Shown in pieces: positions 1 through 64,000 of a DNA stretch of 64,000 nucleotides (the first letter of the stretch is position 1; every line of letters begins with the position of its first letter). The translations under genes were made by a program, and so were the position numbers. The stretch spans positions 176,437-240,436 of IMG/VR virus record IMGVR_UViG_3300031414_000001. One strand, given 5' to 3'. The stretch is from a virus (Duplodnaviria; Heunggongvirae; Uroviricota; Caudoviricetes). The notes under the pieces are model-generated. The model had not been told where the DNA came from. It worked only from the letters and a program-made list of their open reading frames with translations, and made no database searches.

Positions 1-1337
1 AAGACGATAGTTGGCAGTTCATAACCTGCTGCTGCGAAGTCTGCTTTCGCAGAGTTGTACGCCGTAGCGTTCCAACCACCCGCATTGCTTGGGTTGAACT
101 CCATATCAGACAGAACAATTAAGTTCTTAGGCATCTGATCTGCTGGTACTTGCTGAGCTTTCGCTACACGCAGTACTTCACGGAATGCCGCCTGAATGTT
201 GGTGCTACCACCCCAGAACTGACCAGCACGATAGCCCATCAGGTCACGGTACTTCTCAGCGATGTTAGAACCTTTCAGTTCGAACATGCGAGGTTGAGTA
301 CTGAAGTTCAGGAACAAGTCCTTGAACGCACCTTCTTGCTTATCGGCAATGTACAGACCGAGAGAGATCGCAACGTTCATACAAGTCATGCCTGTAGAAC
401 CAGCAGAACAGTTCATTGAAGAACTAGTATCTACCATTGGGATCGCTTTGTTGTCGCCCATGAAGTTACGCAACTGTTCCCATTGAGCAACGCCCAAAGT
501 CTCAGCGGCAGAACCATTACCCAAACGAGTTGTTACATCGTATGGATACAGAGCACCAGCATTTACCTTCACTTCGCCTTTTTCGATTGAAGCTAGGAAC
601 TCGCGGTAACGAGCTTCATCACGTTTCATGAACGCTGGCAGGTAACGAGCACTCGCAACTGATGGAAGCTTGCTATACTCGATTTCATCCCATTCGTTCG
701 CACACATCTTCTGTTCAACAGTGTTGCTCAGAGATGAAAGCAGCTTACGATACGCACGTTCGTTGATGTTCATGGTGGTCATGATCTCACGAGCGATTTT
801 GTTATTCGCAGCACGGTTTTTGTTGGCTTCGGTGTTCATATCAACAACGCCTTGAGCGTTCTTCTTGAACTTGTAGACGCGAGGCATCCACTTAGCACAC
901 AGTGCGTTACCAGAGGTCAACGCTTCTGAGATTGCCTGGTAAGCCAGGGTCTTAGCTGCTGCTGTTTTGAAGATCAACAGATCATCCCAACGACCGAAGT
1001 CTGCCAGTACTGGAATTACACGCAGTACTGCTTCAGGATGCTTAACTTCAAGGTACTTCAGAAGTTCGCGAGGGGTATTACGTTCACCCGCACCACCACG
1101 AATATCACGTGCCCAAAGGATCATCTGGAGAGCAAGCGTAGGGTTAGCTGCGTATGCTGCGTCAAATGAATTTTTGTACACACCGAGATCTTTGCCACGC
1201 AGAGAACCGATCATGAAGAACAGATCGACCAGTGGATTCAGCGTACTTTTCAGTGACGCCGCACCATTTGCGGTGGTAGAACGGTTTTGTGAAGCTGTAG
1301 TGTTTACGTTGTTTACTGCGTTTTTAAATGCTGACAT
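1..1337 (-). CDS. DUF2828 family (TROVE-like/vWA) protein, truncated at the window edge
   Basis: Missing from the ORF track because it runs off position 1. Manual translation from ATG 1337 (SD-like GAAGGAAAG upstream) gives MSAFKNAVNN...NPLVDLFFMIGS...LWARDIRGGAGERNTPRELL, the typical DUF2828 N-terminus. Confidence 0.75.
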   Translation of the reverse strand, partial: MSAFKNAVNNVNTTASQNRSTTANGAASLKSTLNPLVDLFFMIGSLRGKDLGVYKNSFDAAYAANPTLALQMILWARDIRGGAGERNTPRELLKYLEVKHPEAVLRVIPVLADFGRWDDLLIFKTAAAKTLAYQAISEALTSGNALCAKWMPRVYKFKKNAQGVVDMNTEANKNRAANNKIAREIMTTMNINERAYRKLLSSLSNTVEQKMCANEWDEIEYSKLPSVASARYLPAFMKRDEARYREFLASIEKGEVKVNAGALYPYDVTTRLGNGSAAETLGVAQWEQLRNFMGDNKAIPMVDTSSSMNCSAGSTGMTCMNVAISLGLYIADKQEGAFKDLFLNFSTQPRMFELKGSNIAEKYRDLMGYRAGQFWGGSTNIQAAFREVLRVAKAQQVPADQMPKNLIVLSDMEFNPSNAGGWNATAYNSAKADFAAAGYELPTIV

Positions 1338-1398
1338 TATACTTTCCTTCTCAGAAATGGTTTAAATTTAATTTGTTGACTCACTTCTCTAACTTGTG

Positions 1399-1689
1399 TT
1401 AGTCGTCATAGTCCGAATCAGGAGCACGTTCACCTGGTAACTCCAATGTATGGAACATACCAAATGCGGCTTCAACTGCTTTACCCGTTTTGCGATGATA
1501 AGCATACACTGAATCGGTACTATAATTTGATTCATCATGCATAACTTCATCAACCCAAACATGGCTTTCGGTCAAATGAACAACTTCGGCTTCATCACCT
1601 TGGGTGATAAAACCAGCACCATGAAAGAAACGATTAACTGTATCGCCTACTTTCAATGATGCCAAATACTCTTGCTTAGTCATAAGCAT
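1399..1689 (-). CDS. hypothetical protein
   Basis: 96-aa ORF with AAGAGG SD, just downstream of the promoter at 1706-1734. Confidence 0.7.
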   Translation of the reverse strand: MLMTKQEYLASLKVGDTVNRFFHGAGFITQGDEAEVVHLTESHVWVDEVMHDESNYSTDSVYAYHRKTGKAVEAAFGMFHTLELPGERAPDSDYDD

Positions 1690-1705
1690 CCTCTTAATGA
1701 TTTAC

Positions 1706-1734
1706 ATTATACCAGATTTCGCTGGGCTGTTTCA
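1706..1734 (-). promoter_or_regulatory. sigma70-like promoter TGAAAC-N17-TATAAT with extended -10 TG
   Basis: Minus strand reads TGAAAC agcccagcgaaatctgg TATAAT, upstream of ORF 1399-1689. Confidence 0.6.
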
Positions 1735-1780
1735 AATTTTTTCGCTTAAAAAGGCAACTTTTTCAGTTGCCTATAAAATC

Positions 1781-3046
1781 TTAGTCTTCTACTTTCAGAA
1801 GATATTTGTTGTTGATAACTTTGAAGTGGATAGTCTGACCATTCACTTTTACAGTACTTTTGTACACGTCACCTTCACAAATCGGAGCTACGATACTCGC
1901 ATGATCCGCTGAATCAAGTGCTTCTTTGATGGATTTGTATTCATCGAAGAAGTATACGATTTCACCCTGCGGAGCTACCGTCAGACCCAGGATACGAGTC
2001 AGTTCGATGAAATCCGCATCATCCAGGAAGTTCTGAGCATCAATATCCCATACACGGAATGCGTAGAACTGATGTTCTTCCAGTTGTTCGATGTTACCCT
2101 GGATACCTGGCCCCATACATTCGCCCTGAATAGCAAGCTGGCGGTTGTTATCGGTACAGTACTTACGAAGACGTTCAATAATGTCGTCTTTCAGTGCTGC
2201 TTTCCAGAATGCCGCACTTTCATCAAACTTCAGTGCGAGATTACGTGAACACACGATACCCTGACCTTCTTCCCACTGGAACGGGTAAGGAATGACTTCT
2301 GCGACTTCCAGCGTCTGAGTTTCCTCATTGAACACTTTCAGATCATCATCAATCTTCTCTACGAAGAAGTCGGGATTGCTTACGAAAGCAATAGTCTGAC
2401 TTGAACCTTCCAGTTTCAGAGATTTACGGAACGGTACACCAGCCATAGTCTGACTGTACTTACCGAACACGTTCTGAATACGGTCTTCATCAGTTTTCGG
2501 GATGAAGATTGGGAAGTTACCAGCAGTTTTTACACGACCAGCACCAGTACCGCCATTACGTTCATCAGGACGTTCGTACTTAGTCACATTGATGAATTGT
2601 TCCAGACCCTGACGGTTATCTTCCAGATCTGCCAGAATTTCAACAGAATTAGAAAGTACTTCGCTTGCTGACGGAGCCAGGAAGTAGCGAACATTCGGGT
2701 TCAGTTCGTAGAAGATTTCATAGAACGCCGAAATCGGCAGAGCAAGACCCTGTGAAATCTGACCACGCAGTTTGATGGTACGGAGGCGAATACGCTCTAC
2801 ACCATTTTCATCAGTTTTAGTACCTTTCCCAGCAAGGAAAGCGAAACGACCATCATTCGCCGGAAGGAATGAGTCAATTTCAAAGAACATGCAGTAGTCT
2901 CCTACAGCAAATTCACCTTTCTTAATAACCACGTTCCAGCCGTCGATGGTTGCTACTTCGATAGCATCAGCATTCGGGATTGGATTGATCGCATTGATTT
3001 TGCGAACAGTTACCAGACGACGACCTTCAGTTACGAGTTCAGCCAT
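1781..3046 (-). CDS. RNA ligase (DRB0094/Rnl2-like family) with N-terminal OB-fold
   Basis: RKINAINPIPNADAIEVATIDGW N-terminus; FPIFIPKTDEDRIQN; KLEGSS (motif I); QGECMGPGIQGN; EGDVYK; FKVINNKYLLK. Confidence 0.9.
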   Translation of the reverse strand: MAELVTEGRRLVTVRKINAINPIPNADAIEVATIDGWNVVIKKGEFAVGDYCMFFEIDSFLPANDGRFAFLAGKGTKTDENGVERIRLRTIKLRGQISQGLALPISAFYEIFYELNPNVRYFLAPSASEVLSNSVEILADLEDNRQGLEQFINVTKYERPDERNGGTGAGRVKTAGNFPIFIPKTDEDRIQNVFGKYSQTMAGVPFRKSLKLEGSSQTIAFVSNPDFFVEKIDDDLKVFNEETQTLEVAEVIPYPFQWEEGQGIVCSRNLALKFDESAAFWKAALKDDIIERLRKYCTDNNRQLAIQGECMGPGIQGNIEQLEEHQFYAFRVWDIDAQNFLDDADFIELTRILGLTVAPQGEIVYFFDEYKSIKEALDSADHASIVAPICEGDVYKSTVKVNGQTIHFKVINNKYLLKVED

Positions 3047-3075
3047 TTTTCTTTTCTCTCTTTGTTTGATTAAGT

Positions 3076-3110
3076 GTGAGCATTATAGCTAATGCTCACG
3101 CCCCTGTCAA
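3076..3110 (-). promoter_or_regulatory. consensus sigma70 promoter TTGACA-N17-TATAAT with a 10-bp inverted repeat over the -10 box
   Basis: TTGACA ggggcgtgagcattagc TATAAT; the repeat GTGAGCATTA-tagc-TAATGCTCAC spans 3076-3099. Confidence 0.85.
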
Positions 3111-3685
3111 GCATTCGGAAGACAAAAATCAGAATAATTTTGATCTTTGTCAGACGGTGCGTATAACCTGTTTTTAACATTAGTGAACAAATGTTCTACC
3201 AGAAACGGGCAGCCTTGATGATTACGATAGTTGTTCACAATTTCGTAAACATGCTTAGTAAAGCAAACATCAGCGTACAGAATATTTTTCAGTTCTGTAC
3301 CTTCAGGCCAATAAGCATCATAGTACTTGTCTTCGTACTTGATAGCACAATGACAGAAAATATCTGGCAGAGTATATCCCGTCCATTCTGAACGTTCATC
3401 AGTCTGCCACAACCCAACAATTTCAACTTCAGTGTTATGAACATCCATCATATATGATTGTACAAATAACGCAGTAGGTAAGCAAATACCAGTACCTAAT
3501 TGATTGCGTCCAGAGACAACACTCATATCGAATAATACACGATTGAGGTTACGACTACGCAGCAAATGTGGGTAATTAGTTTCCAACCAACCACGATGGA
3601 TAGCATCATGTGCTGGTTTGAATGCTTTCATGTGTTCGGCGATTACGGTGTTATAAGCTGTACCAATACTTTCTGAAATGTTCAT
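3107..3685 (-). CDS. hypothetical protein
   Basis: 192-aa ORF in the minus-strand gene run, with SD. Confidence 0.65.
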   Translation of the reverse strand: MNISESIGTAYNTVIAEHMKAFKPAHDAIHRGWLETNYPHLLRSRNLNRVLFDMSVVSGRNQLGTGICLPTALFVQSYMMDVHNTEVEIVGLWQTDERSEWTGYTLPDIFCHCAIKYEDKYYDAYWPEGTELKNILYADVCFTKHVYEIVNNYRNHQGCPFLVEHLFTNVKNRLYAPSDKDQNYSDFCLPNA

Positions 3686-3693
3686 ACAGTACC

Positions 3694-4014
3694 TTAGTAT
3701 TTTGTTGGTAAATCTTCAAGTTTAACATCTAACCCATATTGTTCATTGAATTGATCAATGTTACGGAAAATGCGAGAAGCAATTTCCTTATTACGGATAC
3801 GTGAACGATGATTACGGGAAGTAATCTCAAGTGGTACATTAACCATTTTGCTGAATTCATTACGGCGATAAGCACGTTCTGGTACTTCAACTTTAATGTA
3901 ATTACTTGATTTCATATACTGGAAGCAAGGATCTCGATGAAGAAGATAAAGAAGTTTATTCTTCGTCCAAAATGTCATCTTCGCCTTGTTGCGATTGATC
4001 AGTTTTCTTTTCAT
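3694..4014 (-). CDS. hypothetical basic protein
   Basis: 106-aa ORF abutting its neighbours. Confidence 0.6.
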   Translation of the reverse strand: MKRKLINRNKAKMTFWTKNKLLYLLHRDPCFQYMKSSNYIKVEVPERAYRRNEFSKMVNVPLEITSRNHRSRIRNKEIASRIFRNIDQFNEQYGLDVKLEDLPTKY

Positions 4015-4147
4015 GTTCTTTTAGCTTCTTACGTAAAGTTGAACTACTGGAGAATCCAGGCTGCCGCCTGAATTCTTCTTTGCGTTCCTCATATTCCTTA
4101 TCAAAGGATTTGAGGATTTTCTTTGCGTGTTTTTTGAAATCACTCAT
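3956..4147 (-). CDS. hypothetical small charged protein
   Basis: 63-aa ORF whose ATG overlaps the upstream stop (ATGA coupling). Confidence 0.5.
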   Translation of the reverse strand: MSDFKKHAKKILKSFDKEYEERKEEFRRQPGFSSSSTLRKKLKEHEKKTDQSQQGEDDILDEE

Positions 4148-4479
4148 GGAGCAATGCCAACATCGTACATGTCTTCATAAACAGTACCGTCTTCATCGGT
4201 AACAAGGTTTTCAACCCATTCTTTGTACTTCTGAGTTGGTTCACCAGTTACAAAACGCAGTTCTGTATGACCATTATCCCATGATGCTAAAGATACAATA
4301 ACTGGAGTATCATTCAGAATACGGGCGGCTTGGTCAAGAACCCAATTTTTATGATGGGAACCATCAATACCACCATACATACCAATGAAGATAAGAGCCA
4401 TTACATCTGATGGAGCACCAAAGAATGGATTCAGTACTGGATCATTGGTTACATCTACTTCGCCTAAATATCCTTTCAT
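4144..4479 (-). CDS. conserved phage hypothetical protein
   Basis: 111 aa containing YGGIDGSHHKNWVLDQAARIL and a YDVGIAP C-terminus. Confidence 0.65.
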   Translation of the reverse strand: MKGYLGEVDVTNDPVLNPFFGAPSDVMALIFIGMYGGIDGSHHKNWVLDQAARILNDTPVIVSLASWDNGHTELRFVTGEPTQKYKEWVENLVTDEDGTVYEDMYDVGIAP

Positions 4480-4480
4480 T

Positions 4481-5011
4481 TTATTTTCCGTGCAAGGGTT
4501 TGTTACTTTGGAAATAATAAGTTTTCTCTGATGTTTCTAGAGTGAAACTTTTCTGGCACAATGTTTCTGCCAGTTTAAATGCCAATGCTTTCGCTTCGTC
4601 TAAAAGCTCGTCATTCGATTTAGGAAATCGTGGATAACATATAACACGAGCAGTAATACCAGATTCTTTACCACCAGTATAGACATAATCACACGGAGTA
4701 ATTTGATAACAGGCTCCCTGTTCGAAAGTGAATTCACGAGCCGTTTGAATCGCCGTATCATAATCACCTGCCATATGGATAGTCACGTATGACGTATCGC
4801 ATGAATTTACTTCTTTGTAGAATTCGTGTTCTACTTTTTGTTTTAAGGACAAACGCTGATACATAACATTGAACCAAGAAGAAAGTTCATCGAGTTCCAT
4901 TTCTGTTAAAGTACTTTGAGCTTCAATCAGAAGTGGAGAACTACGACGATACCATTCTTCTAAGGTATAACAATCTTGATACAGCTTTTCAAAATCAGAA
5001 CGAGTTACCAT
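4481..5011 (-). CDS. hypothetical protein
   Basis: 176-aa ORF coupled to its neighbours. Confidence 0.65.
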   Translation of the reverse strand: MVTRSDFEKLYQDCYTLEEWYRRSSPLLIEAQSTLTEMELDELSSWFNVMYQRLSLKQKVEHEFYKEVNSCDTSYVTIHMAGDYDTAIQTAREFTFEQGACYQITPCDYVYTGGKESGITARVICYPRFPKSNDELLDEAKALAFKLAETLCQKSFTLETSEKTYYFQSNKPLHGK

Positions 5012-5607
5012 TAATAAACCTTTATTTTAGGTGTTAAGTGTAGTACTGGTTCAGCCAAACGTTCTTCTAAGTCAACGACTCGTAAGAAGGTATATGGGCT
5101 GATAGTGTAGTGGTCACTGTCAAAGCAAATATGCCTATTGTGAACTGAACGGTACAAACGACCATATGCGTAGTACTTGTTCGAAATCCACAATTCATCG
5201 CCATTAGCGAAATCTAATGTACAATGACCAATTTTAGCGTCCAGATCACCTGCTTCATACGCAAGGATTAGACGGAGAATATAACGGTCAGCACGATCAA
5301 GAATCTTACGATCCTTATGCTTTTCCTGATATTCTTTCCAGGCAATAGGGTACTGACGTTTCAGATGTTCAAAGTGCTGTTCAGAAGTCATAACAACTTC
5401 TGGAATAGTCTCTGTCACCAATTCACCAGGAACAACACTACCTTCAGGTGAACGTAAACGTGCCAATTCACGTTGTGCTTCTTCAATCTTTTTGAGAGAT
5501 TTAGAGCTACGTGAATGTGAAATTTGAGTATTCAACATCCAACCGAGAACACCCACAATAATGTGAGAAGAAGCAATTCCAATTATACCGATAGTTGAAA
5601 TAATCAT
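5011..5607 (-). CDS. hypothetical membrane-anchored protein
   Basis: N-terminal hydrophobic segment followed by a coiled stretch. Confidence 0.65.
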   Translation of the reverse strand: MIISTIGIIGIASSHIIVGVLGWMLNTQISHSRSSKSLKKIEEAQRELARLRSPEGSVVPGELVTETIPEVVMTSEQHFEHLKRQYPIAWKEYQEKHKDRKILDRADRYILRLILAYEAGDLDAKIGHCTLDFANGDELWISNKYYAYGRLYRSVHNRHICFDSDHYTISPYTFLRVVDLEERLAEPVLHLTPKIKVY

Positions 5608-6113
5608 GATAAATGTACTTCCTCGTTTTTACGTTTACGTTTGAAGAAACCATGCTTAGCTGGTTTATCGCGTTCTTCCATAAGTACTGAACGTAATTCC
5701 ATGAGTTTAACCCATGCTTCAGTACTGATAGCTTTACGATCATTACGAATCATACCGAAGTTCTGATGGTAATGAGCTACGTGTAATGGTTCATCTGCCA
5801 TCCAACCAAAGCAATAATGATCGGGTTGGTCAACCTGAACATAGATACGTTGTGCATCGTACTGAACACCACTGCTACCATGTTGGAGTACTTTAGTGAA
5901 TAACAGATTGTCGTTGTACTTGCTCAGTTGAACAGTGAATTCACCATTATCATAACGTTCAAGTACACGTAAAAGTCGCTCACTTTCAGCCTTATCTTTT
6001 AAACCGTGAAGTTGATAACGTTGAGCACGAATACCAAACCATCCAGCTAAGGATGCTTGACATATGAACCAACCAGCACTAATGCCAGTCATTATTGAAA
6101 ATCCGATCCACAT
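5604..6113 (-). CDS. hypothetical membrane-anchored protein
   Basis: N-terminal hydrophobic segment; GGAG SD; downstream of the promoter at 6144-6172. Confidence 0.65.
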   Translation of the reverse strand: MWIGFSIMTGISAGWFICQASLAGWFGIRAQRYQLHGLKDKAESERLLRVLERYDNGEFTVQLSKYNDNLLFTKVLQHGSSGVQYDAQRIYVQVDQPDHYCFGWMADEPLHVAHYHQNFGMIRNDRKAISTEAWVKLMELRSVLMEERDKPAKHGFFKRKRKNEEVHLS

Positions 6114-6138
6114 TTTTGTCTCTCCATTAATAAGATAA

Positions 6139-6172
6139 GGCTGATTCTATCAGCCCTCGTCGGTCGTGTCAA
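6139..6172 (-). promoter_or_regulatory. sigma70 promoter TTGACA-N17-TAGAAT with inverted repeat over the -10 box
   Basis: TTGACA cgaccgacgagggctga TAGAAT; GGCTGA-ttcta-TCAGCC at 6139-6155. Confidence 0.75.
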
Positions 6173-6737
6173 ATTTATTTTGCTGGAACTGTCGATAACA
6201 ATGACGGCACATGCTTTGATACACATCGTTACCACCTATTAACACCTGTTCAGTACTTTCAACTAAACGAGCATTGAAGATAGCCTTTTTACCACAAGCA
6301 CAAATATTTTTCAATTCTTCGATACTATCAGCAATTTCAAATAGTCTCTTAGAACCACTAAACAGCTTCGATTCGAAGTCAGTTCTTATTCCGTAACACA
6401 GTACTGGAACGTTTAGAGTATCTACTATTTCGCCTAGAATGTCAACCTGTTCTTCTGACAAAAATTGACATTCATCAACAAATACTGCTTTTATTCCTAA
6501 AGTTACAATATCCTCAAGAGACTTCCTGAGTACTGTTAAATCATCTTTAGGTATAATAATTGCGTCAGCTTCGATACCAATTCTGGAAGTTACTTTACCA
6601 GTACCGTAACGGTCATCTAATGCTGATGTGAATATTAATACTTCGTAACCACGTTCCCTGTAGTTGTACGCAGCTTGAAGTAGATTAGTACTCTTTCCTG
6701 CGTTCATGGAACTAAATCTGTAATACAATTTAGCCAT
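6150..6737 (-). CDS. tdk: thymidine kinase
   Basis: MAKLYYRFSSMNAGKSTNLLQ (P-loop), VFVDECQFL, YGIRTDF, Zn-binding CACG...CRHC. Likely start at 6737. Confidence 0.97.
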   Translation of the reverse strand: MAKLYYRFSSMNAGKSTNLLQAAYNYRERGYEVLIFTSALDDRYGTGKVTSRIGIEADAIIIPKDDLTVLRKSLEDIVTLGIKAVFVDECQFLSEEQVDILGEIVDTLNVPVLCYGIRTDFESKLFSGSKRLFEIADSIEELKNICACGKKAIFNARLVESTEQVLIGGNDVYQSMCRHCYRQFQQNKFDTTDEG

Positions 6738-6748
6738 CGTAAATCCTT

Positions 6749-7039
6749 TTACTTTAATTGAATACACGTAGTTTTGACTGTACCACCAGTATTAACAAGT
6801 TTAATCTTGCCTTTCTTGATCAGTCGTTTTAAATCTGGATCATTCTTTGTCTGTAAACAGTACTTCCTATTCACAGCAAAACTAAATCCAGCATTCAGTA
6901 CTTCTAGAATTAAAGCCCTACGTTCTTTGCCATAACTCATTTCACGAAGTTGCCAGTACTTTCTCAGTAATGGGGTTGGGTTTTGATTATTATCACGCAG
7001 CAACCCATCTGGCGTACTAATTTGTGCTCTTAATGCCAT
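6749..7039 (-). CDS. hypothetical basic protein
   Basis: 96-aa ORF coupled to the upstream stop. Confidence 0.6.
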   Translation of the reverse strand: MALRAQISTPDGLLRDNNQNPTPLLRKYWQLREMSYGKERRALILEVLNAGFSFAVNRKYCLQTKNDPDLKRLIKKGKIKLVNTGGTVKTTCIQLK

Positions 7040-7344
7040 TATAAATCCAACGATACAAATTCATCAATATGTTCAATAACATATTCTTTTAATTCAGAAT
7101 CAGAAAATTGGCCTTTTATTGGACACAAAACATAACCAATTTCATGCAGAGAGATTTCTCCAGAATCCACTTCTTGATAAATCATTATGAAACTTTCATT
7201 TGGATAATATGGATCAGGAATATAACAGTCATCAATATCTTTATCAAGATATTCAAAATAAGCTTGTTTACTTTGAAGAAAATCAATCAGAGGAATTTCC
7301 ACTTCAACAATCTGTACTTTATTGATCTTCACCATCTTCGTCAT
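7039..7344 (-). CDS. hypothetical acidic protein
   Basis: ORF-track 7039-7434; start trimmed to MTKMVK to avoid a long overlap with the upstream gene. Confidence 0.55.
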   Translation of the reverse strand: MTKMVKINKVQIVEVEIPLIDFLQSKQAYFEYLDKDIDDCYIPDPYYPNESFIMIYQEVDSGEISLHEIGYVLCPIKGQFSDSELKEYVIEHIDEFVSLDL

Positions 7345-7768
7345 TTTCATCTCCCAAATCTTTACATTCATACTCGTCAATACGACGATCAAATTTACCT
7401 TTGTTCCAACGAGCGATTTCACCAGGGAGTTCATATGGACATTCGAAATTATCTAAATCATCTTCGAATCCGTCTTTATATTCATCACTTTCATAATATT
7501 CATAGTAGTGTTCTGGATTATAACCACTAAGAGAATATCCGAGCAAACTAATCAACCAATCAACTTTTTCTTGGTCATCAGTCACTACAGTACAACATTC
7601 ACGCCAGTTGAAATCATCTAAATTTACTTCTGAATGTTTACCAAATGCTTCACCAAAATGAATATTAGCATTATCCAAAAGATCTAGTTCTTCTTCAGTA
7701 CTGATAAACAGTCCTTCTAAAGAATAACCACGTCCGAAATCAACATAGAATCGAAATAATTTATTCAT
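7319..7768 (-). CDS. hypothetical acidic protein
   Basis: 149 aa, FYVDFGRGYSLEGLFIS...LGYSLSGYNP. Confidence 0.65.
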   Translation of the reverse strand: MNKLFRFYVDFGRGYSLEGLFISTEEELDLLDNANIHFGEAFGKHSEVNLDDFNWRECCTVVTDDQEKVDWLISLLGYSLSGYNPEHYYEYYESDEYKDGFEDDLDNFECPYELPGEIARWNKGKFDRRIDEYECKDLGDENDEDGEDQ

Positions 7769-8459
7769 GTTTTTTAACCAAATAATGTGCGAGGCGTAAC
7801 TCGCGGTCTATAGTATCTAACTTGAACTGGATATACCTTGGGTCATCCAGTAATGTAACAGTACCAGTAAAGGTCTGTTTCTTTAAGATTCCCCAATGGA
7901 AATCTTCACTATGCACAATTACAGAATCCCCAAGTACTGCTACAGTACCATCAGGGTATGTTGCTTCCTGTACACCATAATATGACTGAACATCTTCAAT
8001 ATCATAGTAATCTTCAAAATTCTCAGAATATGCTTGATGTTCTTCTAAATCTTTCAGTACTTCATCCAGGTTAACATTCTTAGGAAATAACACATATTCT
8101 GGATATAATTCAAAGGAAGACGGTGTATTTTTAATTTTCAGTTCATATTCAACTGCTTCTTGATATGAGTTGATTAGTTCAGGGTACAAATAGAAAGTAC
8201 CGTGCTGATCAGATTCAACAGATACAGCAACCAATGTACGCAGTTTAGGTTCAGTTTGATATTCTAAGCAGAATTTGTATGCTGCTTCAACTGAATCAAA
8301 CCATCCACCATCAATACAATCTTCGTTTTCCCATTCTAAAATATCAACACCAACGGATGGTAAGTTGTCATCATATACAATGAATAAACATTTTTGTTCT
8401 TGTTCAATATCCTCAATGAGAGAATATAAATCATCAACAGTCATTGCTGTTCTCCACAT
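7761..8459 (-). CDS. hypothetical acidic protein
   Basis: 232-aa ORF; true start probably MTVDDL. Confidence 0.6.
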   Translation of the reverse strand: MWRTAMTVDDLYSLIEDIEQEQKCLFIVYDDNLPSVGVDILEWENEDCIDGGWFDSVEAAYKFCLEYQTEPKLRTLVAVSVESDQHGTFYLYPELINSYQEAVEYELKIKNTPSSFELYPEYVLFPKNVNLDEVLKDLEEHQAYSENFEDYYDIEDVQSYYGVQEATYPDGTVAVLGDSVIVHSEDFHWGILKKQTFTGTVTLLDDPRYIQFKLDTIDRELRLAHYLVKKHE

Positions 8460-8485
8460 AAAAGAAAAGGAGGCAACGCCTCCTT
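8460..8485 (-). terminator. intrinsic terminator
   Basis: AAGGAGGC-aac-GCCTCCTT hairpin followed by a U-tract on the minus strand. Confidence 0.8.
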
Positions 8486-8486
8486 A

Positions 8487-9101
8487 TTAATCTTCCTCTT
8501 GTTCTTCATCGTCAAATGTGTAATCGTCGTCGGATTCATCATATTCTTCATAATCATCATCCTCCCAACGATACGCATCGTAACGTTCATCTTCCGAAGA
8601 AGTGAGTTCAACTTGAACCCCATGTTGCCTCAAATACGAAATGAAACTACCAGGATGGTTTTCATCCAAAGCACGTTCAAAGAACACATAATATGCTTCC
8701 TCAAACTCTTTCTCTGAATAATAATCATATTCCCAATAAGTATTCCAATCCGTGTCTTTAGGCCAAGTTGCCCAGGTTGGATGAACTTTACGATCCAGAA
8801 GTCCACGATCAATAATCGCAGTCTTATAGCGTTGTTCAAGTTCCTCGTTTACAGGACGAGGTTTCCATTCTGGACGTGGAATACCACAGCCGATACTCTC
8901 TAAGCGATTAAGAATTTCATTACAAAATTCATAATAGTTCGCTTCTTCCACATCATAACAATGTGCTGAAGTTCCTGAATGGTACTCTCCGAAATTCCGA
9001 TGTGAATCAGAATGTACTGAAAGAATATCATTACTATAAGAACCGCACATTTCACAATCGGAATAGCTATCATGAACATTGATGGTTAACTCTACTGACA
9101 T
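8487..9101 (-). CDS. hypothetical protein with N-terminal CxxC and very acidic tail
   Basis: DCEMCGSY near the N-terminus; D/E/Y-rich C-terminus. Confidence 0.65.
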   Translation of the reverse strand: MSVELTINVHDSYSDCEMCGSYSNDILSVHSDSHRNFGEYHSGTSAHCYDVEEANYYEFCNEILNRLESIGCGIPRPEWKPRPVNEELEQRYKTAIIDRGLLDRKVHPTWATWPKDTDWNTYWEYDYYSEKEFEEAYYVFFERALDENHPGSFISYLRQHGVQVELTSSEDERYDAYRWEDDDYEEYDESDDDYTFDDEEQEED

Positions 9102-9114
9102 ATTTTATCTCCAT

Positions 9115-9142
9115 AAAAGAAAAGGACACATAATTGTGTCCT
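9115..9142 (-). terminator. intrinsic terminator
   Basis: AGGACACA-taat-TGTGTCCT plus U-tract. Confidence 0.8.
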
Positions 9143-9148
9143 CATTGA

Positions 9149-9598
9149 TTATTGTAGTACTTTAAGTTTATATAAGATGCTCTCAACAAAACTCATTATA
9201 TCTTCGAGTGTGTTTACAGAGCCAAATTCGCCAAGTCCATCCAAAATTTCATGTATCTTAATACAGTGCTGTACGTATTCTTCCAGTAGAGGAATTGCTT
9301 CTTCTAAAGGTTGAAAAACATAAGTACTGCCAGTACTGAAAATTGGGCCACGTTCAGCCATCATACCTTCTATGAAAGTATCCACATATTCTGGCAACCC
9401 TTTATAGAATTCATCCAGTTCAATGTGTTTAGAATAGAACTTGCACTGTAAGTGCCAGTGGTGTGCTTGGGATTCAAGAAATAGACTATTCTCTACGAAT
9501 TTAATCAGAATATCATCGTGAGTGTCGTCAGAAGTTTCTACGTAATCAATCATACTGCGTATGTCGTTAGGATCAAAATGTTCGCTCATAGGTATCAT
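9149..9598 (-). CDS. ferritin/Dps-like four-helix protein (DUF5856-like)
   Basis: QAHHWHL...HIELDEFY...DTFIEG pattern resembles the Dps ferroxidase centre (H-x-x-H, H-x3-DE-x-Y, D-x3-E). Confidence 0.6.
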   Translation of the reverse strand: MIPMSEHFDPNDIRSMIDYVETSDDTHDDILIKFVENSLFLESQAHHWHLQCKFYSKHIELDEFYKGLPEYVDTFIEGMMAERGPIFSTGSTYVFQPLEEAIPLLEEYVQHCIKIHEILDGLGEFGSVNTLEDIMSFVESILYKLKVLQ

Positions 9599-9622
9599 CC
9601 CTTCAGGTTATTGATACTGTAT

Positions 9623-9988
9623 TTAGCAGTGAAAAATAAACTTAGGGTTGTAGTAGTCACAAACTTTTTTGACTTTCTCATATTCCATTGCTCCAAAAAC
9701 AAAAAGAAATTCACACGGAACCTCAGACAAATACATGGTATTAGTACTGATGAAGTGTAAATTATCTGTCTTGTGAACAGGGAAATGAGGATCAAAATTT
9801 AAACAGATAACGCAATTATCTTCAAGAGCAATTTCTTTCATTGCTTCATAGATTCCTAATGCTTTGTCATCATTTAAACTTGGTAGGTATATTCGATTCT
9901 GTCTTGTTAGATAAGAACCGTACTCAATTAAAATTAGAAAATATCTCAACATAATACTGTTGAAATATTCATTGTCTGCTAGTTCCAT
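9623..9988 (-). CDS. hypothetical protein
   Basis: 121-aa ORF with AGGAG-like SD. Confidence 0.6.
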   Translation of the reverse strand: MELADNEYFNSIMLRYFLILIEYGSYLTRQNRIYLPSLNDDKALGIYEAMKEIALEDNCVICLNFDPHFPVHKTDNLHFISTNTMYLSEVPCEFLFVFGAMEYEKVKKVCDYYNPKFIFHC

Positions 9989-10134
9989 TGCCTAACTCCG
10001 TTAGTCAAGAATTTTCGTTAGTACTCACGTTGTTCGTACTTAACTCAATTCCTATAAACTATTTAATACGTTTAACACTGTTTATACTGACGGGGTTTGT
10101 TGATCTATTTGCATCCCCCCACAAAAGGGGAACG

Positions 10135-10160
10135 AAAAAAAAGTCAGAACTAAGCTGACG
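10135..10160 (-). terminator. intrinsic terminator candidate
   Basis: GTCAG-cttagtt-CTGAC followed by 8 U on the minus strand. Confidence 0.6.
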
Positions 10161-10605
10161 GTGGTAGTCTTACCATCTGAATTTGTAGATTTCACTCAAA
10201 TTTTGGACGGATCTATATTGTCTAAAATTTGTAGTAAACACTGGCGGGTTGTCCGGTTTCCAGTTACTACAGTCGCATACAACGGTCGGAGTTTTCTCAT
10301 TGCTCCGCATATAGTACTTGCTAATTCAGCAACAGGTACTATTGATATTCCGTAGAATATCTCCCTTTTAACAGGTGAGTATGCCTCTAATGCCTATCTA
10401 GTGCGTTCATGTCAAGGACGCATTTAAAGTGCCGCATTGCCGTGGGTGGTACAAACTATGCCAACTCCTAACGGGTAAAATATATTGCACTCGTACTGAT
10501 TGAACTACTCAACTGCTGTTTACTTTTCAACGAGATCAGGTTCAAACTATTCCATTTCTGGATCAATCAGAGTTTTAAAACTATGAAGACCTTTTTAGGA
10601 TCTTC
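10135..10605. ncRNA. candidate large structured non-coding RNA or structured DNA element
   Basis: ORF-free region of at least 8 hairpins, between a minus-strand promoter (10612-10640) and a minus-strand terminator (10135-10160). Strand is ambiguous; see findings. Confidence 0.55.
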
Positions 10606-10611
10606 ATGTAC

Positions 10612-10640
10612 ATTATACCAGAACTTTTCGTTCTGTTCCA
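10612..10640 (-). promoter_or_regulatory. promoter TGGAAC-N17-TATAAT with extended -10
   Basis: TGGAAC agaacgaaaagttctgg TATAAT. Confidence 0.65.
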
Positions 10641-10647
10641 TTTATTT

Positions 10648-10911
10648 TCAATCTTTGTAAAAATTATCGTTGTACGATTGTGTCTTTACTAGATATTCTG
10701 GATCGATGTTTTCAGGCTTGATATTGTCGTTCAGGAACTTAATTGCCTTTTCTTCAGTACTGAATATTAATCGTTCATTAGTACCTTTAGCACATAAGAA
10801 ACGACTATGATCATAATCATATTCGTCAAAGTCTTGCATACAACAAACCGTAATAATATCATCATTATCACCTATCCGAATTAGGCGATAGTATACATCA
10901 TTGTCATCCAT
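10648..10911 (-). CDS. hypothetical protein
   Basis: 87-aa ORF with GAGGA SD. Confidence 0.65.
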   Translation of the reverse strand: MDDNDVYYRLIRIGDNDDIITVCCMQDFDEYDYDHSRFLCAKGTNERLIFSTEEKAIKFLNDNIKPENIDPEYLVKTQSYNDNFYKD

Positions 10912-10921
10912 TATTTAATCC

Positions 10922-11308
10922 TCACATATATAGTCGTTTTAAATCATTTGGTGAACGATCAAAGAACTTTTCGATGAAATCAATGTCTTCAAAGATGGAT
11001 GGTTCAAGATCATGTTCATAGTACGCACGTTTGCTGTACTTTTCAGTACCGTTGTACGCAATCTTAATCGGAAGTACTGTTTGTCCTTCGTCATTCAATG
11101 TATACGTACAGGCTAATTTAATATATTTCTTTTCATTTTCGAGATTATTCTTATGAAAAGCAAGTTCTAGACCTTCTAAATGACTATAAGAATCTTCTTC
11201 CTTAACCATGTTGATTGTAATGGTTACATGCTTCTCATAACCTAAATCGGTGATGTTTTTAGTACAAGCGGTAACTTCCAGGTTATCAAAGTTAATATCT
11301 TTCAGCAT
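10922..11308 (-). CDS. hypothetical protein
   Basis: Start moved to ATG 11308 (GGAG SD) because the ORF-track ATG at 11353 lies inside the -10 box of the promoter. Confidence 0.6.
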   Translation of the reverse strand: MLKDINFDNLEVTACTKNITDLGYEKHVTITINMVKEEDSYSHLEGLELAFHKNNLENEKKYIKLACTYTLNDEGQTVLPIKIAYNGTEKYSKRAYYEHDLEPSIFEDIDFIEKFFDRSPNDLKRLYM

Positions 11309-11351
11309 TCTAAGCTCCAAACGAAAAAAAGGAAATCTCACGATTTCCTTC

Positions 11352-11380
11352 ATTTTACTTCAAAATTTGGTTCCTGTCAA
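11352..11380 (-). promoter_or_regulatory. sigma70 promoter TTGACA-N17-TAAAAT
   Basis: TTGACA ggaaccaaattttgaag TAAAAT. Confidence 0.75.
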
Positions 11381-11695
11381 CTACTTTTTAGGAACTTCTT
11401 TAATTTCTTGTGTACCAATTATAGTACGAACAAGTTGGTTGTGCATAGCAGCACACTTGTTATAGTAGTCTTGCCAATCACGTAGAACCCGATACATCTC
11501 TTGACCATTATATACCTTCTCACCTTTGTCATTTAAGACGAAATTTTCAGGAATTGGTGTATCAGTACCGCATAGTTGTATGAGATTGGTTTGTTCGATT
11601 ATTGGTTTATTTTGAACTGGAACAGTTGAACAACCAGTGATTGCTAAAGTACAAGCTAGTACTACAGCAGCAAAAAACATTTTTATCTTGTTCAC
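11381..11695 (-). CDS. o-spanin (Rz1-like outer-membrane lipoprotein)
   Basis: Signal peptide with lipobox LAITG-C; overlaps the 3' end of the i-spanin gene. Confidence 0.75.
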   Translation of the reverse strand: MNKIKMFFAAVVLACTLAITGCSTVPVQNKPIIEQTNLIQLCGTDTPIPENFVLNDKGEKVYNGQEMYRVLRDWQDYYNKCAAMHNQLVRTIIGTQEIKEVPKK

Positions 11696-12060
11696 TTGGT
11701 CTTCTTCCCGTTAATAATATCAGCAGAGTTTTGACGATATTCCTTCAATAAATCAACACCAGCTTGATCCATACATTGTTGTAGGTAAATTGGTTGTTGT
11801 AAAATAGTTTTCTCTTTGATTATAGTGTTTGTCTTAGCATCGGCTAGTAAATCTTTCTGATCTTCTAAGCCCTGAGCCTGAGCACTTTGGTATTTTGAAA
11901 TACCAGCATCAACGATTTTCTCTACTTTTTGGTCTAAACTTTCTTTGTATCCATCGTAATACGTATGGACTTTCCAACCACCAAATACCATGATAATTGT
12001 GTACAGTACGAACGCAACTATGGTAATAGGCAGCTTATATAACTTAATAAAATCTAACAT
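11692..12060 (-). CDS. i-spanin (Rz-like)
   Basis: N-terminal transmembrane helix ending GGWKV, then a coiled-coil periplasmic domain; paired with the lipoprotein gene. Confidence 0.75.
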   Translation of the reverse strand: MLDFIKLYKLPITIVAFVLYTIIMVFGGWKVHTYYDGYKESLDQKVEKIVDAGISKYQSAQAQGLEDQKDLLADAKTNTIIKEKTILQQPIYLQQCMDQAGVDLLKEYRQNSADIINGKKTK

Positions 12061-12100
12061 GGTAGCACCTCTTAATACTTAGGTTATACCATATTTAATG

Positions 12101-12124
12101 AAAAACCCGCCATTTCTGACGGGT
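12101..12124 (-). terminator. intrinsic terminator
   Basis: ACCCG...CGGGT hairpin plus U-tract after the ACP-like gene. Confidence 0.65.
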
Positions 12125-12133
12125 ATTGGATGA

Positions 12134-13551: not shown

Positions 13552-13552
13552 A

Positions 13553-14050: not shown

Positions 14051-14051
14051 A

Positions 14052-15718: not shown

Positions 15719-15819
15719 GTTGCTTCCTTATTGGAAAATCCAAAATGTTATATACAATCACTATAGGAGACTTTTTACGATTTCTTCCTTGAGATTGTTT
15801 ATATTGTAATGAATTAGTA

Positions 15820-16713
15820 TTATAGATAGTTTTCTCGCCCATACTGTAAAAGCCTTTCGATTATTAAATTATAGTACTGTTCGGACTTTTCAATAAGAAC
15901 GCAATTACGATTAAGCTGTACAGCACTTAACGCAGTTGTACCTGAACCACCAAATGGATCAAGAATCCAGTCTTGTTCTTCAGTACTGAGTTTGATAAAG
16001 AAATTAGGAATGTCGATAGGGTAAACCGCAGGATGACCAATATTTAAATTACTGGTGCTACAGGTTAGAACGTTACTTGGTCGTACCATATCTTCAGCAA
16101 CACGCTTAGACATATTCATAGTACTACCATTAGTGACGTTGTGCTCGCCTTTATTCTTTCGTTTCTTTTCACTTTCCAGATATTTTGAAGTACTTTGTAC
16201 CTTCACTTCATCAGGAAAGAATTTGTATTTTGAGGTGTGATTAAACTGATAGATTCGTTCGAAACCATCCTTCAATCGAGTTTTAGCACCAGTTGGAAAT
16301 GGATTTGTCTTATTCCAAATGTACTCGTCACTCCAATTATAATTCTCAGACATACCAATAATGGTTCGATACACATAGGTATCACGATGACCTTTATCAA
16401 CATGTTCTTTGATATTGAAGAAGTACGAGCCATCTTCATGAATGACGTTCATAATATCAGTACTGATATTTTTGTACCATTCAGGAAAGTCTTCAGGGCT
16501 TATGCTGTCGTATACATCTTTACGTTGTTCGGCATATGGAGGGGAGGTAATAGCAGAATTGAATTTGAGTTCAGATTCATGTAACTCCTTAAGCACTTCA
16601 GCACAATCACCGTTGATTACAATGATTGTGTTGTTTCCCATTTCGATAACTTGATGCGGGGATTGTCCGGTGTATTCCATGTTTTCCTTATGAGTACTTG
16701 TCAAGTATCCCAT
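15820..16713 (-). CDS. beta-class amino DNA methyltransferase, probably N4-cytosine
   Basis: Catalytic TSPPY precedes the SAM-binding LDPFGGSGTT; HPAVYP motif; IWNK motif. Confidence 0.92.
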   Translation of the reverse strand: MGYLTSTHKENMEYTGQSPHQVIEMGNNTIIVINGDCAEVLKELHESELKFNSAITSPPYAEQRKDVYDSISPEDFPEWYKNISTDIMNVIHEDGSYFFNIKEHVDKGHRDTYVYRTIIGMSENYNWSDEYIWNKTNPFPTGAKTRLKDGFERIYQFNHTSKYKFFPDEVKVQSTSKYLESEKKRKNKGEHNVTNGSTMNMSKRVAEDMVRPSNVLTCSTSNLNIGHPAVYPIDIPNFFIKLSTEEQDWILDPFGGSGTTALSAVQLNRNCVLIEKSEQYYNLIIERLLQYGRENYL

Positions 16714-22524: not shown

Positions 22525-22536
22525 TTAATTTTCCTT

Positions 22537-25287: not shown

Positions 25288-25299
25288 ATGTAAATCCTT

Positions 25300-35155: not shown

Positions 35156-36064
35156 TTATGAATATTTTCTAAGATATTCCTCAACTACATCTGCCTTTCC
35201 AAAGCCAGGAATTCCCGCGTTCTTTTTAGACAATTGAACGAAGTCGAGGTTCAATAAATTTTCCAGTACTTCAGCATCGTGTGCCTTAAAGAATATGTAC
35301 TGTCGCTTAGGGTTCAACTCGTCTTTACTTCGAATGATCTCGGAAAAGTCATAGTAACCTTGGCGATGAACAGCAAAATCCCAATCGTAATCGAAATATT
35401 TCATTGCTGCTTCTGTTCTATTGTACTGGTACATTTCGAACATGTCAAGCTTAGTTTGAGGCTTTTCAACGATTCTTAGGTTTTCTTCTTCAAATTCACC
35501 GATTCCCCAAATTTGGAATGATGACCGAATACCATAAGACTCACCGACTATATTAAACGAATCTTCGTCTAAGTCAATATCATACAACAATCTCGCTCGG
35601 CTGTCAAGCTGTTTTTGAGCAGAATATTTTCTGAACTGAACAGGGAGTATAAACCCTACTACAGTACTGTATTCAAAACACTTATTAATGAATTGAATCG
35701 CTAAATCACCCTTCTTACCAAAAGGTGGATTTCCCAAAAACACCACATCATTTTGTGGTAGATATTCTTCAATGTTCCCGTTGATGAAGTCCATTTGGAT
35801 AATATTATCAGATTCAGGGAGAATGTCAAACCCTATTTTGTCTTCTTGAATAATATTAAGAAACGCTCCACCACCAGCACTAGGCTCAATTATAGTGTAC
35901 GGTTCTGATTTGTACTTTGTACAGAACTTGACAAATTTCTGATAGCAGAATTCAGCTACCGAATCATTAGTGTAGTACTTGTCAAGTGCTTTAGCTTCTT
36001 TTTTGTTCATTCCGTTGTCCTTGTTGATTGCAAAAAGATATTTATAATCAACAATAAAGTCCAT
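35156..36064 (-). CDS. gamma-class N6-adenine DNA methyltransferase
   Basis: DKYYT, IIEPSAGGGAF (motif I) precedes GNPPFG (motif IV). Confidence 0.88.
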   Translation of the reverse strand: MDFIVDYKYLFAINKDNGMNKKEAKALDKYYTNDSVAEFCYQKFVKFCTKYKSEPYTIIEPSAGGGAFLNIIQEDKIGFDILPESDNIIQMDFINGNIEEYLPQNDVVFLGNPPFGKKGDLAIQFINKCFEYSTVVGFILPVQFRKYSAQKQLDSRARLLYDIDLDEDSFNIVGESYGIRSSFQIWGIGEFEEENLRIVEKPQTKLDMFEMYQYNRTEAAMKYFDYDWDFAVHRQGYYDFSEIIRSKDELNPKRQYIFFKAHDAEVLENLLNLDFVQLSKKNAGIPGFGKADVVEEYLRKYS

Positions 36065-61841: not shown

Positions 61842-61855
61842 ACAATCACCATTTA

Positions 61856-62512: not shown

Positions 62513-62532
62513 AATTATCTCCAGTTTAAATT

Positions 62533-62555: not shown

Positions 62556-62560
62556 ATAGA

Positions 62561-62803: not shown

Positions 62804-62812
62804 TCCAGTACC

Positions 62813-63061
62813 TTAGCAAGTTTGACTTGATGCTACCCAACCACCTTGATCTGCGTCAAGATAGTATTCTTCTATTAACCAAGAACCTTCTTCTTCATCC
62901 TGTAGGATAGCTGGTGGGTAATATGTGCCACCCATACCATAAGATACATCGAGATCAAAGCTTAGACCGTGTTCATCGGCGATTGCGATTGCTTCAGCGA
63001 TTGCTTCATCAATCTTAGCTACAGCAGCAGCTAGTTGTTGTTTAGGGGTTAAATCACTCAT
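62813..63061 (-). CDS. small acidic protein (WxxSSxxC paralog)
   Basis: Ends GGWVASSQTC. Confidence 0.6.
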   Translation of the reverse strand: MSDLTPKQQLAAAVAKIDEAIAEAIAIADEHGLSFDLDVSYGMGGTYYPPAILQDEEEGSWLIEEYYLDADQGGWVASSQTC

Positions 63062-63321
63062 TAGTAATCTTCATCTTCATTGTCTTCACGATTCCACGAA
63101 TCATCGACCCATTGTGAAATCATTTGTTTAACTGCTTTTTCTTCTGCATCAGTTGTATCGTCATCAAACGCATAGTAATAGTCGCCAACTGGAGCAAACC
63201 AATCCATACCTTCATACAATTCAGTTTTAATTTCTTCAACTGTTTTGTTCACGAACAACTCAGTATAGTGGTCTGCTGACTCACTAATAATATGTAAAGC
63301 TACAATCATCTTCCAATCCAT
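63061..63321 (-). CDS. small acidic hypothetical protein
   Basis: 86-aa coupled ORF. Confidence 0.55.
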   Translation of the reverse strand: MDWKMIVALHIISESADHYTELFVNKTVEEIKTELYEGMDWFAPVGDYYYAFDDDTTDAEEKAVKQMISQWVDDSWNREDNEDEDY

Positions 63322-63662
63322 TCAACATTAGCATCACTACTGCGATACTTGCTAGTACTTTGGTCTTCATGCCAACGTTGTTCACAACATTTACACGTAA
63401 TAACGTACCAGTATGAATCGTCGGACTTACACCAGTTTCCAGTATCGGATTCTGGTTTTACCGTGACATATGGGTGCTCACAATTCGATTGGAACGCAAA
63501 TAGGTCAGAGTTTGCTTTACCAGCAATTTCACGTAAACGTAAGAACTCCATACGTTTCTCAGCAAAAGCTTGGTCTTTAGCATCTTTAAGCTCCTGATAT
63601 TCCATAGCACCTTCTTTAGAAGTGAATTCAGTACCATCAGGAGTTACGTAGATTTTAGTCAT
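63306..63662 (-). CDS. hypothetical Cys-containing protein
   Basis: CEHP...WC...CKCCE. Confidence 0.55.
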   Translation of the reverse strand: MTKIYVTPDGTEFTSKEGAMEYQELKDAKDQAFAEKRMEFLRLREIAGKANSDLFAFQSNCEHPYVTVKPESDTGNWCKSDDSYWYVITCKCCEQRWHEDQSTSKYRSSDANVEWIGR

Positions 63663-63891
63663 TAGGTTTATCCTTTTTAAAATATTCTTCTATCTTGAGA
63701 TAGATTATCATAGGCCAGAAAACACCTGCGAATACCGCCATCAAGAAAGCGAATAAAGCAAAAATAATACCTAGACTACTATCAACATCAATTTCGTGAG
63801 TAAGTTCACCAAAGTGATATATAAACGATACGATAGCACCGATGATATAAATCACCAGTACTACGCAAAGGATTGATAGGAATGTGGTCAT
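63655..63891 (-). CDS. small membrane protein
   Basis: Two hydrophobic helices with a FWP motif. Confidence 0.55.
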   Translation of the reverse strand: MTTFLSILCVVLVIYIIGAIVSFIYHFGELTHEIDVDSSLGIIFALFAFLMAVFAGVFWPMIIYLKIEEYFKKDKPND

Positions 63892-64000
63892 TTACTTTTC
63901 CTGTCCTTATATTCTTCATATATGATAGCAGGAACCATAACAGGCCACAGTACAGCAATACCAGATACAATACAAAAGCCGATAACATCATTCCAGCTTT

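Follow-up and report, generated by a model that had tools for sequence, protein, structure and literature searches.

Why should a phage genome that lacks 26 of the 64 six-base palindromes carry another of them, AGTACT, about three times per kilobase? The question is raised by a 64,000-nucleotide stretch of DNA (the window; positions 176437-240436 of a 370,971-bp phage genome, IMG/VR record IMGVR_UViG_3300031414_000001), in which 31 of these palindromes are missing and AGTACT is dispersed, unstranded, over positions 1..64000 as 193 of the 1166 copies in the genome (37 of the 193 in the extended form CAGTACTG). The phage is placed among the Rak2-like jumbo phages, in the genus Mimasvirus; its wider kin are Eneladusvirus, Asteriusvirus and Alcyoneusvirus, and the records closest to it, Erwinia phage Kaldavass and Xanthomonas phage XbC2, show ~85% identity over 10 kb and ~89% over the aligned genome. 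It is a giant, plant-associated phage, and the best match to its DNA in public sequencing runs is a phyllosphere metagenome, no RNA dataset being listed among the matching runs. A sequence-only reading of the window had likened AGTACT to the cyanobacterial palindrome HIP1 and proposed that the phage creates or keeps the sites, either by methylation-directed repair or conversion, with a methyltransferase at 15820-16713 as partner, or as binding sites for a DNA-reading protein. The analysis described here finds that AGTACT is kept as a DNA word, separates it from the proposed methyltransferase, and points tentatively to a sequence-reading factor that may belong to the host.

Base composition predicts 21.2 copies of AGTACT in the window, against 193 observed (9.1-fold), and 122 in the genome, against 1166 (9.5×), in line with the 8-10-fold enrichment of the sequence-only reading. 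The hand counts behind that figure also hold: at least 55 sites were claimed in 1-18600 and 58 are present, at least 27 were claimed in 19780-27993 and 27 are present, and 15 of the 15 example coordinates are real AGTACT sites; the GC content, put at ~36%, measures 37.8% in the window. Both the hexamer and the octamer rankings are topped by AGTACT and its one-base extensions, and CAGTACTG reaches 205 copies genome-wide (46×). The control hexamers proposed as a check show no similar enrichment (0.4-1.5×), with 32 copies of TGTACA (1.5×), 10 of ACTAGT (0.47×) and 9 each of AGATCT and TCTAGA (both 0.42×) in the window; among NGTACN palindromes genome-wide, the 1166 copies of AGTACT stand beside 172 of TGTACA and none of CGTACG or GGTACC. 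The maximal-order Markov ratio for AGTACT is just 1.17 in the window because the AGTAC and GTACT pentamers lie mostly inside the hexamer itself (193 of the 302 AGTAC), and not through any effect of composition. Type II restriction-site avoidance, of which this genome is an extreme case (GCGC has 0 copies in 371 kb vs ~480 expected, and likewise 0 in Kaldavass, XbC2, GAP32, RaK2 and 121Q), does not describe AGTACT: the sign is reversed, the word being enriched 9.5× and kept while 26 other hexamer palindromes are missing.

Protein and codon usage account for a fraction of the sites. Within 568 ORF-based gene calls AGTACT occurs 1053 times, vs 252±13 in a synonymous-codon shuffle within each gene, which retains protein, dipeptides and codon usage (z=61; 4.2×), and 148 in a whole-codon shuffle (z=84; 7.1×); the codon- and dipeptide-preserving control thus fails to reproduce the observed count, and five control palindromes lie at 0.6-1.0 of their shuffle values. 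The higher count when the protein is kept (252 vs 148) indicates that amino-acid order (Ser-Thr, x-Val-Leu, Lys/Gln/Glu-Tyr) carries part of the signal. Sites fall in every reading frame, as had been noticed from the letters (524, 158 and 371 in frames 0, 1 and 2), each frame standing ~4-fold over its own shuffle, and the density is 3.5 per kb in non-coding and 3.1 per kb in coding DNA. AGTACT is, as HIP1 is, a short palindrome many-fold above both composition and codon-aware expectation. One way to deny it any meaning is to see it as a by-product of composition, of codon or dipeptide usage, or of the palindrome purge itself, GTAC being the "graveyard" of GCGC: the purge is real, with every GCGC gone, and two transitions turn GCGC into GTAC. 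The sums do not fit, since the GTAC excess is ~1900 vs ~480 GCGC expected and the AGTACT excess ~1040 vs ~45 AGCGCT expected, and same-composition palindromes are not enriched. The shuffles, a non-coding density as high as the coding one and the AGTACT-specific synonymous conservation described next refute this explanation, to which we leave next to no probability.

Alignment of the genome with Kaldavass and XbC2 (93% aligned, 89-90% identity) shows how the sites fare over time. AGTACT sites remain intact at 79.5% in Kaldavass and 77.9% in XbC2, vs 58.7% and 56.2% for all hexamers, which ranks the word 3 and 6, respectively, among ~1300 words (1322 for Kaldavass). The most conserved hexamer, TATTTA (87-90% intact), was taken as the positive control of this ranking: read on the other strand it gives the core of the T4-type late-promoter box TATAAATA, the genome is transcribed mostly leftward, and its conservation fits T4-like late promoters on the leftward strand. 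Within AGTACT, third codon positions are 91.5% conserved vs 79.5% for the same codons elsewhere (z=13.2 for Kaldavass, z=12.7 for XbC2), and synonymous positions change ~2.4 times slower than in the same codons outside the sites; first and second codon positions do not differ inside and outside AGTACT, and non-coding positions are 96.6% conserved in the sites vs 92.1%. The sites are under purifying selection and, as in HIP1, are conserved between relatives beyond background, both inside and between ORFs.

Substitutions were polarised with Kaldavass and XbC2 as outgroup. Ancestral AGTACT sites accept third-position substitutions at 0.41 of expectation, control palindromes at 0.6-1.65. On the phage's own branch 117 sites were gained and 101 lost, next to 709 common to all three genomes; AGTACT sites turn over at equilibrium while the stock is held, and this balance of gains and losses indicates that density, not position alone, is kept. 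The density is also alike (2.9-3.65 per kb) in genes common with RaK2 and 121Q, in genus-level genes and in orphans. With the codon-preserving shuffles, the equal density in non-coding DNA and the slow synonymous change, the proposal stands that AGTACT is maintained in this phage lineage as a DNA sequence.

The word extends beyond six bases. Its preferred form is [T][T]n-C-AGTACT-G-n[A][A]: at -1 the base is C in 41% of sites (2.15×) and G in 7% (0.37×), T is mildly favoured at -3/-4, and relative to other AGT contexts C at -1 is raised and G halved. Left and right flanks are mutually independent, the product 507 × 454 / 1166 giving 197 expected copies vs 205 observed of CAGTACTG. The observation that one-off variants around the GTAC core are frequent holds for the outer positions (NGTACT/AGTACN, enriched 1.2-3.3×) and fails at positions 2 and 5 (~1.0-1.25). 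AGTATT and AATACT, the deamination products, stand at 1.03-1.14 and are not depleted. There is no preferred distance between sites, short-range spacing being near-exponential with no signal of periodicity or clustering, and the largest gap, 2220 bp, is what random placement predicts. Once genome positions 240-295 kb are excluded, AGTACT is under-dispersed, and none of the 60 commonest hexamers is spread more evenly (variance/mean 0.65-0.81; p about 0.01). Beyond the window, at genome positions 250000-290000, a small-gene block has densities of 40-64 per 10 kb.

Among the jumbo phages, an AGTACT excess of 7.6-9.5× is found in the present phage, Kaldavass, GAP32, RaK2 and 121Q (7.6-8.0× in the last two), XbC2 has 1105 copies in 368 kb, and CAGTACTG occurs 191-247 times in each of RaK2, K64-1, 121Q and PBECO4, an enrichment as strong as in the present phage or stronger. 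All Rak2-like phages examined carry an excess of AGTACT or of CAGTACTG. Set beside this group as jumbo myoviruses on other hosts, not as established kin, Xanthomonas phage XacN1 (AP018399) has 0 AGTACT in 385 kb vs 127 copies of the reversed control, and Agrobacterium phage Atu_ph07 (MF403008) shows 25 in 490 kb, the word being purged or lacking in both; in T4 there are 29 copies in 169 kb.

Further carriers were sought with a pattern scan of IMG/VR for clustered AGTACT sites. It retrieved a family of ~31-kb contigs with 4-5 AGTACT per kb, no GCGC and head genes of lambdoid type (terminase, portal, protease-capsid fusion), in which the parts of contigs retrieved have no protein detectably common with the present phage. 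Relatives of the capsid gene sit in prophages of Leclercia tamurae, Phytobacter diazotrophicus and Yersinia pekkanenii, each about 31-36 kb long with 2-5 AGTACT per kb. Inside these three prophages 2-kb bins hold 2-20 AGTACT and no GCGC, at 35-44% GC, vs 0-1 AGTACT and ~20 GCGC per 2 kb in the flanking host DNA, and AGTACT density falls sharply at the prophage borders (judged by eye on extended loci). A second small AGTACT-rich family, L135/L136, proved to be a prophage of E. coli. Flanks were compared in seven genomes, jumbo phages and prophages together: in each of them C is favoured at -1 and G is halved relative to other AGT contexts, and the prophage flanks match the jumbo-phage preferences down to the T favoured at -3/-4. 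Distant relatives of the small prophages, themselves prophages of Atlantibacter (L166, L167), are nearly free of GTAC (0-5 per 2 kb, with many bins at 0) and contain GCGC, which suggests GTAC-directed restriction in that host. The Y. pekkanenii prophage has its own irregularity: a 10-kb segment (contig positions 70000-80000) is nearly without AGTACT or GTAC, still without GCGC, and may be a module of recent acquisition; in it lies the homologue of the methylase-like protein at 35156-36064 of the window, as a fusion with a long C-terminal extension (484 aa).

Does a phage methyltransferase account for this distribution? The enzyme named by the sequence-only reading (15820..16713, minus strand; PF01555, N6_N4_Mtase, Pfam match 3.8e-35) has homologues at ≥85% identity only in Mimasvirus and Eneladusvirus phages, and no PF01555 match was found in RaK2, 121Q, PBECO4 or K64-1, all four of them enriched. 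Cellulophaga phage phi18:3 encodes a 53%-identical homologue, yet has 23 AGTACT in 71 kb and no ninefold excess, and no palindrome is tolerated exclusively in genomes with the PF01555 enzyme. The enrichment does not follow the gene across the jumbo relatives, the very outcome that the sequence-only reading had named as refuting the methyltransferase link, and the enzyme was rejected as the partner of AGTACT. A gamma-class amino-methyltransferase-like protein of 302 aa (35156..36064, minus strand; motifs YYT, EPSAGGGAF and NPPFG, no Pfam family; "hypothetical" in the Kaldavass annotation) is the sole DNA-acting gene common to the present phage and AGTACT-rich prophages. Homologues are present in Kaldavass, XbC2, GAP32 and the Leclercia and Yersinia prophages, and none was found in RaK2, 121Q or the Phytobacter prophage. 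The 707 homologues found elsewhere come from a wide variety of DNA, and some bear the name "predicted RNA methylase"; no AGTACT excess surrounds the five carrier loci that were sampled, and a sequence search of the PDB with this protein returned nothing useful. In view of its gaps among the carriers and the lack of an excess at the homologue loci sampled, it was rejected as well.

Two further methylases lie outside the window. A small C5 enzyme (genome 367178-368047) is encoded in all five jumbo genomes tested, and a Dam-like enzyme of 185 aa (genome 249710-250267) occurs in RaK2, 121Q, GAP32, Kaldavass and the present genome; RaK2 encodes them as gp194 and gp447, and m5C in CpG context has been reported in its DNA (PMC3622015). 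The three small prophages have neither, and both enzymes were therefore set aside as partners. A methylase-motif scan of the Phytobacter prophage found none. Enzymes of PF02086 and PF07669 are absent. Vsr-type repair was discarded as well: no such enzyme is encoded, and AGTATT and AATACT are not depleted. Among the phage-encoded enzymes compared, no methylase family is common to every AGTACT-rich phage. Methylation-directed conversion into AGTACT finds no support and seems improbable.

The other half of the earlier proposal, that the sites bind a DNA-reading protein, is the best reading so far. An all-against-all comparison of every ORF of the three complete prophages with the five jumbo genomes leaves a T4-type lysozyme (PF00959) as the sole protein common to all AGTACT-rich phages compared; two more families common to prophages and jumbo genomes are homing-endonuclease-like and not in the present phage. 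With an overlap of lysozyme, homing endonucleases and a patchy methylase, a reader gene common to both groups of phages was dismissed. The SlmA-binding sites of E. coli nucleoid occlusion (SBS, GTGAGTACTCAC) resemble the present sites in having an AGTACT core, in being palindromic and in being dispersed on an Enterobacterales replicon, and they are read by a dimeric helix-turn-helix protein, SlmA (PMC3020112). Next to the core SlmA requires G1, T2 and then a purine (position 3), in a half-site G-T-R-A-G-Y (PMC3020112), whereas in the phages the base next to AGTACT is preferentially C and G is halved. There are 0 matches to the full sites GTRAGTACTYAC or GTRAGYRCTYAC, half-sites are depleted (38 vs ~64 expected; 0.4-0.6 of expectation), and SlmA was rejected as the reader. 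LexA, whose half-sites are TACTG/CAGTA, was rejected too: boxes of the form CTGT-N8-ACAG number 5, no more than at other spacings from 0 to 20. The operator of a host regulator was likewise rejected: the preferred 12-mer TTCAGTACTGAA occurs almost exclusively within prophages.

Some sites do stand at promoters. RaK2 and 121Q each have 24 promoters of the form TTGAC-N10-AGTACT, in which AGTACT begins 15 bp from the start of TTGAC and lies inside the spacer. In the present genome, at 263-278 kb, AGTACT overlaps the -10 element (TATAGTACT) or +1 of sigma-70-like promoters that form repeated terminator-promoter cassettes in the small-gene block (GGGSTTGAC...N17...TATCCT/TATAGT) and that we read as early-type. 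A few dozen sites are thus placed where a bound protein would block RNA polymerase, a small minority of ~1000.

We take AGTACT to be a selected, density-kept recognition word for a two-fold symmetric reader that is more likely of host than of phage origin, a reading that we hold tentatively and at somewhat below an even chance. The word read in double-stranded phage DNA would be C-AGTACT-G with T-rich and A-rich outer flanks, selection holds it at about one site per 320 bp genome-wide, and it would most likely be bound by a sequence-specific DNA-reading factor of two-fold symmetry, for which the density of sites, not their exact positions, sets the benefit. Binding may mark, organise or protect phage DNA, or may shut AGTACT-containing early promoters. 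The lean toward the host comes from finding the same flanks in unrelated Enterobacterales phages with no shared reader gene, which makes a host-encoded reader likelier than a lineage-specific phage protein. A more specific version, which we regard as doubtful, holds that a factor of the enterobacterial cell reads C-AGTACT-G and that the word came independently to saturate the otherwise palindrome-free, unmodified DNA of at least two unrelated lineages (Rak2-like jumbo phages, and small temperate phages rich in AT) as a means of recruiting or disarming that factor. If true, AGTACT would be an "identity word" that is specific to phages and works through its density, and the interface between phage and host would be of a new kind.

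Several results weigh against a selected word read by a host factor. Gains of AGTACT from one-off variants run at just 1.36× neutral (27 vs 19.9 expected), and a biased repair process would likewise slow change at synonymous sites. The even spacing depends on post hoc exclusion of the hot region, and the relatives, taken without such exclusion, are over-dispersed. Host chromosomes, in the DNA flanking the three prophages, are not enriched in AGTACT; this excludes a host "self" signal of the Chi type and means that a host reader would have to benefit the phage. The search for reader candidates (shared proteins, SlmA, LexA, a host operator) identified none, and in five host genomes the 12-mer TTCAGTACTGAA is essentially without copies outside mobile DNA. 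The homology searches may also be compatible with two unrelated phage-encoded readers or with a small shared gene that escaped detection.

With the compositional by-product set aside above, three explanations compete with the host-leaning one. A reader encoded by the phages themselves, for example an early-promoter repressor or a genome-coating or organising protein with a prophage analogue too diverged or too small to detect, is unlikely but deserves serious attention: it would explain why AGTACT takes fixed positions in early-type promoters (after TTGAC-N10 in RaK2 and 121Q, at -10 or +1 here), and an unenriched host chromosome fits a mark that tells phage DNA from host DNA. Against it, the promoter sites are a few dozen out of about 1000, the three prophages and five jumbo genomes overlap only in the families listed above, and identical 8-bp flank preferences in unrelated lineages would need the convergence of two proteins. 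Reading on single strands, as a priming or helicase-nuclease signal in single-stranded DNA for both fork directions or in RNA, would make the word palindromic for the reason that both strands need it. At one per 320 bp the sites are about as dense as priming events on a lagging strand, the palindrome puts the same word on both strands, and the flanking CTG is the trinucleotide of E. coli DnaG. T4-like jumbo phages are expected to encode their own primase and small lambdoid prophages normally use host replication, and the two groups would then lack a common priming enzyme; maximum gaps of ~2.2 kb, moreover, fit random placement, so long gaps are not avoided. We judge this quite improbable.

A neutral process of HIP1 type deserves a somewhat longer hearing, although it too is improbable: methylation-linked or otherwise biased mismatch repair or gene conversion would turn near-matches into AGTACT, and the sites would have no function. 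In its favour, one-off variants are enriched at the first and last positions only, a pattern that Elhai described in HIP1 (PMC4390886). A C5 methylase and a small Dam-like one are encoded in every jumbo relative, m5C has been reported in RaK2 DNA (PMC3622015), and biased repair would mimic the conservation of sites. Replenishment of this kind is hard to reconcile with the lack of a methylase family in all AGTACT-rich phages, with the Phytobacter prophage in which the motif scan found none, with the absence of an encoded Vsr and of any depletion of AGTATT or AATACT, and with one-off gains that are not significantly above neutral. A repair bias of the host would enrich the host chromosome too, which is not enriched, and the site conservation of HIP1 has itself been taken as selection, not repair (PMC5861425).

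How far does the likeness to known systems reach? HIP1 (GCGATCGC) and the alternate highly iterated palindromes are found in cyanobacteria, where their function is unknown (PMC5861425; PMC4390886), and as a description the comparison drawn by the sequence-only reading is apt. Both words are short palindromes far over expectation, in all frames and in intergenic DNA, conserved between relatives beyond background, and with one-nucleotide deviations biased to the outer positions. They differ in that HIP1 belongs to cellular chromosomes whereas AGTACT lies on phage genomes and the host chromosome is without it; in strength (15-300× for HIP1, ~9× for AGTACT, which is AT-rich and 6-8 bp long); and in that, among the phage methyltransferase families compared, none tracks AGTACT, which recurs in unrelated phages of one host order. 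A periodicity of 10-90 kb is reported for HIP1, while the spacing of AGTACT was assessed at short range, 371 kb giving little power at such distances. Chi (GCTGGTGG) and the uptake words USS/DUS resemble AGTACT as short words under selection that are scattered densely and whose density is what counts, and they are read by a DNA-processing machine; they are asymmetric, orientation-biased and enriched in their own chromosome, whereas AGTACT is palindromic and confined to phage DNA. No publication linking an enrichment of AGTACT or CAGTACTG to phages was found in the literature searched.

Other features of this DNA lie beside the main subject. The complement of the E. coli Chi octamer, CCACCAGC, has 26 copies on the plus strand genome-wide (12.7×), so that Chi itself falls on the mostly transcribed strand; the excess could be a codon effect (CTG GTG G) or true Chi enrichment. 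Palindrome avoidance also varies between lineages: TGCA is purged in the present phage, Kaldavass and XbC2 (0.28-0.32×) and enriched in GAP32, RaK2 and 121Q (1.5-1.75×), GATATC and ACGCGT are purged in Mimasvirus genomes and normal in RaK2 and 121Q, and GGTACC, with 49 copies in RaK2, is missing from the other genomes counted (XbC2 was left out of this count). These patterns look like footprints of differing host restriction repertoires. On the minus strand of the window, three tandem paralogous genes (19780-27993) encode proteins of 914, 916 and 897 aa that the relatives' annotations call hypothetical, structural or minor tail proteins. Near the PF01555 methylase, also on the minus strand, lie a DUF5856 protein (9149-9598), which relatives' annotations describe as starvation-inducible, Dps-like and DNA-binding, and a nucleotidyltransferase of the RlaP family (14468-15718).

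Phages are expected to purge short palindromes, and this phage does so to an extreme, yet it keeps ~1170 copies of AGTACT under measurable selection. The presence of the same word with the same flanks in unrelated phages, and its scarcity in their hosts and in two jumbo myoviruses of other hosts, point to an undescribed sequence-reading step in the infection of Enterobacterales. Coliphage 121Q and the small E. coli prophage are tractable carriers of the defined motif, which could also serve as a signature to spot such phage DNA in genomes and metagenomes and as a design rule for engineered phages. Discovery of the reader could reveal a new host factor or defence interaction, and would account for a constraint that acts genome-wide on the choice of codons, and even on the sequences of proteins, across this group of jumbo phages.

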